Part shown: piece by piece, positions 15,703 through 18,837 of the stretch | How positions within the stretch are numbered: position 1 is the stretch's first letter | Layout of the letters: each line of letters opens with the position of its first letter | Assembly: GCA_951406725.2 (NCBI GenBank) | Contig: OX597820.1 | Location: 20,770,001 to 20,834,000, forward strand | Source of the DNA: Octopus vulgaris | Lineage: Eukaryota | Direction: 5' to 3' | DNA length: 64,000 nucleotides | Program-made: the position numbers and the translations under genes | The notes under the pieces: model-generated | The model's database searches: none | What the model saw: only the letters and a program-made list of their open reading frames with translations | What the model was told of the DNA's origin: nothing

Positions 15703-16068
15703 TTATATATATATATGTGTGTATATATATATATATATATATATATATATATATATATATATATATATATATATATATATATATATATATATATATATAT
15801 ATATATATACATATATATATATAATCAACCGATAAAGGTGAGAAAATTGGGTACTAATTTAATAGCACATCCATTTACCACCAAGTGGCTTAGTGCATAA
15901 AAAACCCGGATTACGACACATTTTATACATAAATATAAGAGAGTGACCACCATGTGGTCTACTCTAGCACTAAAAATAGATCCGCGAGGTTTCAGCCACA
16001 AAAGAAATTGTTTCCGTTGAAATTTAGCGCAAATGAACAGTGCAAATAAACATAACAAAATGTAGATT

Positions 16069-16149
16069 AGTTCGAGACAATTCTTTCGCTATTAATAAAA
16101 TTATGTGGTTTTACTTACATAAATTTATCTGTAGCTCCTCAGCCGAACC
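16069..16149 (-). ncRNA. Type I hammerhead ribozyme, minus-arm copy
   Basis: ggttcgg-CTGAGGA-gcta...tagc-GAAA-gaattg-TC-tcgaact; one substitution in stem III. Confidence 0.75.
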
Positions 16150-16935
16150 CGTCCAGGATACAATTTACTCGATCGCACGCTAGACTTCACCATAACGATA
16201 AATGTAATGTGGTCGACTCGATTGTACCCGCTGTTATAATTTAAGTGCCCCTGTCATCGCCCGCCGAAATTCACGGAAACAAATACTACATCCAAAATTA
16301 AGTGCAGCATAATTACAATCAACCGATAAGGGTGAGAAAATTGGGTACTAATTTAATAGCACATCCATTTACCACCAAGTTGCTTAGTGCATAAAAAACC
16401 CGGATTACGACACATTTTATACATAAATATAAGAGAGTGACCACCATGTGGTCTACTCTAGCACTAAAAATAGATCCGCGAGGTTTCAGCCACAAAAGAA
16501 ATTCGAACTAATCTACATTTTGTTATGTTTATTTGCACTGTTCATTTGCGCTGGTAGTAGTGCTAAATTTCAACGGAAACAATTTCTTTTGTGGCTGAAA
16601 CCTCGCGGATCTATTTTTAGTGCTAGAGTAGACCACATGGTGATCACTCTCTTATATTTATGTACAAAATGTGTTGTAATCCGGGTTTTTTATGCACTAA
16701 GCAACTTGGTGGTAAATGGTTGTGCTATTAAATTAGTACCCAATTTTCTCACCCTTATCGGTTGATTGTAATTATGCTGCATTTAATTTTGGATGTAGTA
16801 TTTGTTTCCGTGAATTTTGGCGGGCGATGACTGGGGCACTTAAATTATAACAGCGGGTACAATCGAGTCGACCACACGTACGTTTATCGTTATAGTGAAG
16901 TCTAGCGTGCGATCGAGTAAATTGTATCCTGGACG

Positions 16936-17016
16936 AGTTCGGCTGAGGAGCTACAGATAAATTTATGTAAGTAATACCACATAATTTTATTAATAGCGAA
17001 ACAATTGTCTCGAACT
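16936..17016 (+). ncRNA. Type I hammerhead ribozyme with intact core; predicted cleavage after C17009
   Basis: Stem I agttcgg/tcgaact, CTGAGGA at 16943-16949, extended stem II gcta...tagc, GAAA at 16998-17001, palindromic stem III CAATTG and a GUC triplet. Confidence 0.88.
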
Positions 17017-18837
17017 AATCTACATTTTGTTATGTTTATTTGCACTGTTCATTTGCGCTGGTAGTAGTGCTAAATTTCAACGGAAACAATTTCTTTTGTT
17101 GCTGAAACCTCGCGGATCTATTTTTAGTGCTAGAGTAGACCTCATGGTGGTCACTCTCTTATATTATATATATATATATATATATATATATATATATATA
17201 TATATATATATATATTATATATATATATATATATATATATATATATATATATATATATATATATATATATATATGTATGTATGTATGTATATATATTACT
17301 TTCGCTTCGCAGTATTATGGGGTGTCTTGGATAACATTAAAAATTGAGGCTTTCAAAAAAGTTATCACTCTGTGGTGTTGGCAGTGGTGACGGTTGTGGT
17401 GGTGGGGTGTCATTGTGGTGGTAGCGGTCATGGTGGTAGCGGTCGGTTTGTAATTCTAGTAATAAATTACTGACACGCATTTACATAGGAATTAAATATC
17501 TGAATTATAATTATTAAGACAACGATTAACTAGTTCGTCGTATACATATGACAATCAAATCGCCACTTTCACTTGACCTTCTTTGCTGTGCTTCAATGAA
17601 TTCGTTCAGTTTGGTTTGCTTCATACACAAGTGATTGTTAAAAATCTTTATTTAATCAGCACATTTATTCTCTGAGGCTCGATTTTATGTATTTATTCCG
17701 TAGACGAAAGAAAAGAAATGCACAGAAAAAAATAGTTATACGTTTATTCTGTCATAATTATTGCTTTTTTTCTTACACTACATTACTGGCAGATGGTTCT
17801 ATTTGACACAGCTGAAAATAAAACGTATAATAATATTAATAATAAAATGGGGTCCATTAGGTTATCTGTCGGTATGTCTAACGATATGCTGTCTGAGAAC
17901 AATACTGTGTATTATTATAGGTGTTGTCGGCTTTTGGATAACTGCTTTAATAAATTATCCGTTTGTTAGTTATTTGTTATCTTTGCCTTTAACATCATTA
18001 TTTCGCATAACTGCTCAATTCAAGTAAAAATCTGCGGTTGTCCAGTCATCAATTTATCGTTGCAGCTAATGAAATAATCTGCAAGACGAAATGCTGCCAT
18101 GTTCATTCATACATACGTATTTATAAAGTACAGCTAACCTATTTCTGTCTATAAACGAAAAATATTAAAGTTTCATGTCTGTAAAGACGCCATATTTCAA
18201 CTTATCATTTTGAGCTCGACATTTTTTTCCTGCTATGGAAAAATTTGTTGTAATCAAGCAATGTTGAGTAACGAAACAAAAACATGACAAAAAAAAAAAA
18301 AGAAAGAAAATGTGATGCGATTACAATTCAAGTTTTATTACAAAGTTTCTGTTAAATCATAATAGTAATATATCAAAGTTATAAAGGACTACGCTGAAAC
18401 ACAATCGCTTGTCTTGTATACGTGATAGCTTAATCTGTTTGGAATAAAAGCGAAATCTCACTTAAAATCATATTTTTCTTTCTTAGAAAAATAATGAATG
18501 GGTGATCTCTTTGGATGATGTAACTATATATACATTATGGAACAAATATAGGAACAGAAAAAAGAAGATGTGATGCTCAAAGCTGGAACATCTTTGACCA
18601 TTAGTCAGCTCAATCGAAGCTGACTAATGGTACTATATAACAATATGGAATTATCTGTTTCAAAACGAGATTGAAAATATAGAGTACGTACGTATGTATG
18701 TATGTATGTATGTATGTATGTATGTATGTATGTATGTATGTATGTATGTATGTATGTATGTATGTATGTATGTATTAATGTATGAATGTATGTATGTATG
18801 TATGCATGCATGTATGCAGGAATGGATGGATGTGTGT

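Follow-up and report, generated by a model that had tools for sequence, protein, structure and literature searches.

A hammerhead-bearing, non-coding tandem unit at TA repeats in the genome of Octopus vulgaris, a likely non-LTR retrozyme with a Penelope-like insertion signature

The window, the stretch of Octopus vulgaris DNA that was analysed (64,000 nucleotides), contains two head-to-head arms of a non-coding repeat unit, set between a left (TA)n target tract (15704..15823) and a right one (17160..17296). The upstream part of the plus arm is one full unit, counted from predicted cut to predicted cut (16503..17009, plus strand; 507 nt, 37 % GC, longest ATG-started frame 42 aa). It is followed head-to-tail by a partial second unit (17010..17165, plus strand; unit 1-156), which is identical to the first at 153 of 156 positions and runs into (TA)n at the proximal fixed 3′ end (unit ~156-164). 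The minus arm, read from 16503 to 15820, has an upstream part (16076..16503, minus strand; unit 79-507, 415 of 429 positions identical) and a downstream part (15820..16075, minus strand; unit 1-268 with a 12-nt deletion), the latter ending at the distal fixed 3′ end, then (TA)n. Both arms point outward into the TA tracts, each has one hammerhead motif, and they measure 1.31 (plus) and ~1.35 (minus) units. Private variants are common to both arms, therefore they stem from one template lineage. Realignment of the arms confirmed the positions given in the first-pass annotation for both head-to-head arms, for the 507-nt unit, and for the hammerhead on the plus arm. That annotation also stated that the plus arm starts at 16503 with the bases that follow the predicted cut. 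This is the case, although the start is either unit +1 or +2, due to T16503 fitting both arms at the head-to-head junction (16502..16504; plus arm from unit +1/+2, minus arm from unit 79/80, one base common).

The plus-arm motif (16936..17016, plus strand) is a predicted intact type I hammerhead, supported by a descriptor scan, folding, and covariation in stem I. On the plus strand it comprises a 7-bp stem I (16936-16942 with 17010-17016), CUGAGGA (16943-16949), a 4-bp stem II (16950-16953 with 16994-16997) that is continued through loop II as a long extra hairpin, GAAA (16998-17001), the palindromic CAAUUG of stem III (17002-17007), and GUC, with the predicted cut after C17009; the scan recovered these core elements as they had been described. 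A hammerhead had been proposed on each arm, however the minus-arm motif (16069..16149, minus strand) is degenerate, with stem III broken by C15.2 to G, and only the plus-arm core is intact. Over both strands of the 64-kb window the scan found two type I hammerheads, this one and an unrelated one at 35437. The earlier label 'minimal' does not fit. The geometry is that defined as canonical for metazoan type I hammerheads (Cervera and de la Pena, 2014), with a 7-bp helix I, a 4-bp helix II, and a 2-bp helix III with palindromic loop. In the minimal hammerheads of Penelope-like elements (PLEs), as given in the text available from the same paper, helix I has 4-5 bp, helix II has 7-8 bp, and an extra base precedes helix II; these features are absent here, helix II being short with an extension and lacking the extra base. 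The Rfam check that had been proposed returned no hammerhead either at the gathering score, where 5S rRNA was the sole match, or at E up to 10, where there were sub-threshold miRNA-like matches due to the inverted repeat in the window.

The hammerhead motif is not a chance match. Its exact 22-nt core, which marks the window-type subfamilies, occurs 138 times in the genome and its reversed control not once, and changes in stem I are compensatory. In an 11-sequence alignment three of the seven stem I pairs are altered on both sides and 98.5 % of cells are paired, a fraction reached by 0 of 500 shuffles, these shuffle counts not being probabilities because the aligned sequences are kin. The core is unvaried in 85 of 92 window-type motifs counted and in 167 of 167 from a sister subfamily, C. 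Relative to the best predicted fold, the hammerhead fold carries a penalty of ~3 kcal/mol in window-type units and 5.6 kcal/mol in subfamily C. With a second copy, the stem III palindrome could form an 8-bp dimer helix (-7.8 kcal/mol, predicted), the mode described for such palindromic stem III motifs (Cervera and de la Pena, 2014, text available). From fold and covariation, the unit RNA is predicted to self-cleave at the hammerhead.

At least 114 genome matches to the unit (2.8 Gb) were obtained from the 40 candidates, of 1,072, that were scored. Window-type units are 502-515 nt in length, with one reference of 491 nt. A core pattern with the first base 'not T' gave 2,418 further matches (controls 0), mostly subfamily C in tandem arrays. 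The C unit is 532-535 nt, 72 % identical to the window unit, and has 33 % GC; the longest ATG-started frames among the top frames of the two are 42-54 aa. Core spacing equals unit length in the arrays, which in subfamily C reach 12.8 units (~13), with neighbouring units 99.1-100 % identical and no ORF; among the window type, L027 is a multi-unit hammerhead array. Exact junctions of C ends with (TA)n number at least 805 for the distal end and at least 319 for the proximal end, and the family occupies more than 900 TA-repeat sites in the genome. The core pattern had no matches in metagenome contigs. Contigs from runs presumed to be RNA match the C unit (84 of 122 at ≥99 % in run X1) and, more loosely, cover parts of the window unit; they show neither strand, ends, nor circles and are not counted as proof of expression.

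The core matches were covered for 100 of 138 window-type and 100 of 2,418 'not T' cases. The loci read were 105 non-redundant window-type ones (14 duplicates left out) and 92 of subfamily C, 197 in all. Two C-pattern loci (L168 and L185), of 33 lying within the first 75 Mb of contig 1, were left out, and so were arm pieces whose 3′ end was odd or whose identity was low (22 of 168 window-type, 8 of 156 C). The 3′ ends of arms fall within two fixed zones in 147 of 168 cases for the window type and in 151 of 156 for C, at ~+162 and ~+268 in the window type and at ~+160-194 and ~+290 in C, so that the two ends lie ~106 nt and ~130 nt apart, respectively. Wherever both ends of a head-to-head locus fall in these zones, one is proximal and the other distal (42 of 42 window-type and 57 of 57 C, together 99/99); 60 C loci were selected on the proximal end, a choice that alone would still admit pairs of two proximal ends. 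A (TA)3 lies within 20 nt of 130/146, 39/45, and 44/44 ends, in sets of ends not selected on TA. The distance between the two 5′ ends is no more than 20 nt in 17 of 57 C pairs (4.4 expected) and 3 of 43 window-type pairs. Classic twin priming on one pass was rejected, as the 5′ ends, judged by eye, do not cluster at the 3′ site of the other arm.

Fixed 3′ ends, inverted arms, and TA targets are marks of endonuclease-bearing PLEs. The available text of two sources describes PLE anatomy as an inverted 5′-truncated copy, an optional tail, and a TA preference (Arkhipova, 2013, PMC3846280; Craig, 2021, PMC8557442), and palindromes or microhomology at inversion junctions are reported in the portions available of the literature on endonuclease-bearing PLEs. 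For an anole PLE, reverse transcription in vitro from two internal sites downstream of the hammerhead, on both target strands, and a predicted dimer of the protein are likewise described (Frangieh, 2024, PMC11167929, text available). That the unit is instead a satellite-like repeat, spread by DNA recombination and carrying a decayed or chance hammerhead, is highly improbable. Tandem arrays do exist and could have grown after insertion, but dispersed loci at TA targets, with inverted arms whose 3′ ends are fixed and whose 5′ ends vary, bear the marks of retrotransposition, and the constancy of the core in both subfamilies does not suggest decay.

No PLE ORF is contiguous with the unit at any of the 197 loci (105 + 92), based on ORF scans and tblastn with a Neptune-type protein, and no LTR-type layout was seen in the loci read. 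PLE pieces are present in nine loci, beyond the 3′ ends or far off, and none is contiguous on the 5′ side of the unit; the three of these that were read are separate insertions parted by (TA)n. The first-pass annotation held that a unit always attached to a full PLE ORF would be an ordinary pseudo-LTR. Among core-selected loci, 0 of 116 are ORF-linked (upper bound ~2.6 %), therefore such constant attachment is not found, and its description of an independent retrozyme, ORF-less, hammerhead-bearing, and mobile, is upheld. The unit could still be the pseudo-LTR of a rare, unsampled autonomous PLE, with the copies as 5′-truncated tandems of that element. All of the insertion features are PLE features, only part of the copies were read, and a pattern search found 2,045 other hammerheads with the same palindrome in the genome. 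Against this stand the lack of ORF linkage, the C arrays of up to ~13 units without an ORF, the ORF-less relatives at 66-73 % identity, and a hammerhead that is canonical and not PLE minimal. This origin is considered improbable. The same-palindrome search returned other families and older ORF-less relatives, and none of the 42 such loci checked held an ORF-bearing relative of the unit.

Two Neptune-type families, a label given here without a tree to PLEs with a C-terminal nuclease and upstream CX2-5CxxC motif, are candidate helpers. Both are abundant and young, with intact ORFs (open frames of 775 and 811 aa) and near-identical copies (amino-acid identity ~100 % in the first family and 98-100 % in the second, over 150 of 150 scored matches). 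Reverse transcriptase (RT) and GIY-YIG domains were identified by Pfam in the first, and both families have two ends ~45 nt apart and TA targets. The first was rejected as a homologous partner, having no sequence in common with the unit (best blastn E 0.07). An older, decayed group related to the second family, L305, has two motifs in common with the proximal and distal ends of the unit (14/16 and 13/14; shuffle p 0.005-0.02, the motifs having been picked after viewing); this possible likeness is a lead only. Mobilisation by PLE proteins in trans, as previously proposed, is supported by the insertion signature, but a helper with a clearly homologous pseudo-LTR was not found among the three Neptune-type groups tested.

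Very probably, the window contains a single insertion of a tandem unit without an ORF and with a hammerhead, a non-LTR retrozyme, likely copied into (TA)n in trans by the RT and GIY-YIG nuclease of a Neptune-type PLE. In the proposed mechanism, a multimeric transcript of the unit would be bound by the helper protein, which would nick both strands of the TA tract. Reverse transcription would then start inside the RNA, one strand using ~+162 and the other ~+268, and the two cDNAs would run toward the RNA 5′ end, halt at variable points, and be joined via short microhomologies. For the window type, a template in the form of a short linear multimer, its 5′ end often cleaved at the upstream hammerhead and the downstream one uncut, is slightly favoured; a template cut at the upstream hammerhead would explain the plus-arm start in the window. 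For subfamily C, with its weaker stem I, the template is likely a long uncut multimer or a circle, which would give the arrays of near-identical units. Two reports, in the text available, count against a cut template: the anole PLE mainly used uncleaved RNA, with no reads described as ending at the cut (Frangieh, 2024, PMC11167929), and eight of nine predicted retrozyme dimers were uncleaved in vitro (Li, Clavereau and Pollet, 2026, bioRxiv 10.64898/2026.07.22.740005).

Loci for the comparison of 5′ ends were chosen by core pattern and not by length, the score-ranked list being biased to long copies. Eleven window-type arms reach +60 of the upstream unit, and seven of them end within -9..+20 of the cut; with the window left out, the figure is 6 of 10. 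Among those reaching this zone, six stop and three read through; two more, L016 and L027, left out above for odd 3′ ends, also read through the upstream cut and were restored, giving 6 of 11. With the window left out, the six stops compare with 1.7 expected from the local rate (Poisson P ~0.008), in a zone that was set after the data had been viewed and with a pile-up that rests on these six events. At the upstream cut in subfamily C, 1 of 43 arms stops (Fisher 1e-4 against the window type), and over all passes in C there are six stops with 8.2 expected. The first hammerhead shows no pile-up, with a stop in the zone for 1 of 48 unconstrained window-type partner arms. The upstream cut therefore has a genuine pile-up, although a modest and broad one that is confined to a single branch. 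An exact +1 fits three arms (the window, L008, and L154), each with microhomology, and the other ends are at -6, -5, +9, ~+11 to +15, and +19. A further 5′-end cluster, at unit 461, was discarded as partly a wrong-subfamily alignment that spread out with closer references.

It had been argued that a random breakpoint would hit the cut position once or twice in 507, and that family breakpoints should peak there. The first argument is too strong for one junction, which proves little because a 2-nt slot has a local stop probability of 0.016, one base is shared, and the locus was picked post hoc among more than 100; the family lends it partial support. The expected peak is present in the window-type subfamilies at the upstream cut, as a broad one (-6..+19), and is missing at the first cut and in subfamily C.

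For the window locus, the main rival to a cut-defined template is that the same Penelope-mobilised element has 5′ ends near the cut due to transcription start or RT stalling, with the exact +1 partly luck and the ribozyme not shaping the template. This is a serious possibility, although held at distinctly less than even. The ends are spread from -6 to +19, two of them upstream of the cut, and stops are already more frequent late in the arm (8-9 per kb at +61 to +160); pseudo-LTRs hold promoter-like motifs, according to the published text available, and the preference of the anole PLE for uncleaved RNA points the same way. However, stalling at structure would be expected at the first hammerhead too, and the rate there is low (1.7 per kb), no pile-up is seen at any pass in C, and stem I has been kept through compensatory changes.

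The other reading of the template follows the proposal for retrozymes: in every subfamily, a monomeric circular RNA would undergo rolling-circle reverse transcription. The near-identity of units within C arrays, C 5′ ends that are flat around the unit, and circularised units that are predicted to be 66-69 % paired are consistent with it, and coral, mussel, and axolotl retrozymes are abundant circles in the reports as available. Ligation of a circle leaves no end at the cut, where window-type arms do stop; 100 of 101 such arms are shorter than two units, and long linear transcripts of existing arrays would explain C equally well. A circle throughout the family is therefore unlikely; the end at the cut indicates a multimer that is linear and partly cleaved, and a circle fits only the C arrays.

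The subfamilies also differ in stem I. Among the most frequent stem I duplexes, energies run from -5.9 to -9.8 kcal/mol in the window type; in C they are -2.7 (91 of 167) or -5.9 kcal/mol (64 of 167), and the two groups overlap at -5.9. Arms reaching two units are 1 of 101 in the window type, 8 of 47 in C with a strong stem, and 15 of 30 in C with a weak stem (p 0.001 within C), and median arm length in C is 1,076 nt with the weak stem and 636 nt with the strong stem; in these C comparisons stem strength is confounded with age, because weak-stem arms look younger. Tentatively, and at somewhat short of an even chance, strong-stem insertions end at the self-cleavage site and weak-stem ones are copied as long concatemers, so that hammerhead strength tunes length, the 99/99 rule reflects a dimeric Penelope protein that allots its two start sites to the two strands, and the family records ribozyme activity in vivo. 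If so, animal retrozymes would be tied mechanistically to Neptune-type PLEs. The literature, as available, names two open questions, the identity of the element behind animal retrozyme mobility and a role of hammerheads during transposition. In this one genome, dispersed insertions number in the hundreds and their Penelope signature can be read, stem I strength and array length vary between subfamilies, and helper candidates have intact ORFs, therefore both questions can be tested in vitro.

Elements of this kind have been described before. Their link to PLEs goes back to a 2020 proposal and has support from a 2026 preprint, as far as the text available of these sources goes. A 2020 review (PMC7761336, text available) states that no motif points to a retrozyme helper. 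In the preprint, from its available text, non-LTR retrozymes of vertebrates and four invertebrates are derived from PLE pseudo-LTRs by phylogeny, with three insects and one coral listed as outgroups (Li, 2026, bioRxiv 10.64898/2026.07.22.740005); a mussel non-LTR retrozyme family is also on record in the text available. In the literature searched, no cephalopod retrozyme was found, nor, in the texts available, an account of this insertion anatomy for retrozymes. An Octopus repeat paper (PMC13282606) contains neither 'ribozyme' nor 'retrozyme' in its main text, and neither 'ribozyme' nor 'hammerhead' in one supplement file. The search covered published texts, and a consensus of the unit may already exist under another name.

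The family is likely a new member of the known animal non-LTR retrozymes and shows their testable features. As in the available descriptions of these (Cervera and de la Pena, 2020, PMC7229834; bioRxiv 10.64898/2026.07.22.740005), the units are non-coding, tandem, and low in GC (37 % and 33 %, below 45 %), each repeat has a canonical type I hammerhead (from descriptor, covariation, folding, and core spacing), dimers to multimers occur in the family, although not at this locus with its one hammerhead per arm, and autonomous PLEs are present in the same genome. At 502-535 nt the unit is longer than the ~170-400 nt of the invertebrate retrozymes studied (PMC7229834), but inside the 51-972 nt of Li et al. 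(2026), both from the text available. Unlike animal retrozymes as described there, helix II carries a long hairpin, and fixed ends, inverted arms, and (TA)n targeting do not appear in the available retrozyme literature; retrozymes of coral, mussel, and axolotl are known as circular RNA, whereas for this unit a circle is a candidate form. Non-autonomous Chlamys PLEs (MRC1; Craig, 2021, PMC8557442, text available) are similar in being ORF-less, with head-to-tail multicopy insertions in microsatellites, but at the 3′ end those derivatives are like their autonomous partners, and most have no hammerhead, whereas no clearly homologous partner was found for this unit. In comparison with Neptune-type PLEs, the family has no ORF, its hammerhead is canonical in place of minimal, and its two ends are ~106-130 nt apart, in contrast to a 30-40-bp PLE tail in the published text available and ~45 nt in the Neptune-type families of this genome. 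Like endonuclease-bearing Neptune-type PLEs and their pseudo-LTRs (PMC3846280; PMC8557442; PMC11167929, as available), it has a head-to-head inverted 5′-truncated arm, two 3′ ends downstream of the hammerhead, AT-rich or (TA)n targets, and palindromes or microhomology at the inversion.

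The family of the 507-nt hammerhead unit is also present in the window as a short head-to-head copy at 37197-37540, flanked by (TA)n tracts on both sides, whose arms correspond to about positions 58-159 and 58-256+ of the unit. The hammerhead is absent from this copy, which by eye resembles the sister subfamily C. Elsewhere in the genome, locus L154 / L002 (G000:C16:21093208-21094101) has a plus arm that begins at the predicted self-cleavage site, at +2 to +7, where +1 is the first base of the unit after the cut. This arm appears to be chimeric, which suggests a template switch, since its upstream and downstream units look to be from different subfamilies. 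Core sequence also varies within the family; in a 515-nt subfamily (L017, L018, L019, and L077), CUGANGA is replaced by CCGANGA, a variant accounting for 22 of the 92 window-type cores.

A second type I hammerhead, unrelated to that of the 507-nt unit, is found at 35430-35515 (CUGAUGA, palindromic CAUAUG, and GUC), upstream of a decayed frame at 35678-36040. By eye, this frame looks like a Penelope GIY-YIG piece; a Pfam search of it returned no match. A decayed fragment at 15170-15500, lying about 200 nt before the left (TA)n tract, also looks by eye like part of a Penelope element, in this case the RT thumb region, and was not matched in the search with the Neptune-type protein. The window also contains two LINE-type ORFs, one of 930 aa with endonuclease and RT (11408-14200, minus strand) and one with a split RT frame (61176-62799, plus strand), and a degenerate 5S rRNA match (2382-2502, 54 bits), possibly a pseudogene or SINE head.

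Two young Neptune-type PLE families were identified in the genome. The first, which is very young, is present at L151-L153 and on many contigs, with a tandem unit of 4,271 nt. Its RT/GIY-YIG frame is 775 aa long and is overlapped on its upstream side by a frame of 454 aa, an arrangement that may reflect a frameshift or an intron. By eye, it has a hammerhead-like motif of the minimal type in which core position 4 is C. The second (L308-L327) has 811-aa frames, and in its hammerhead-like motif, also judged by eye, U3 and A8 replace C3 and G8. Genome-wide, the CAAUUG palindrome is found in 2,045 additional short cores of type I hammerheads, against 12 in the control. These have mainly GUA triplets, are frequently arranged as close inverted pairs, and belong to other PLE or retrozyme families.
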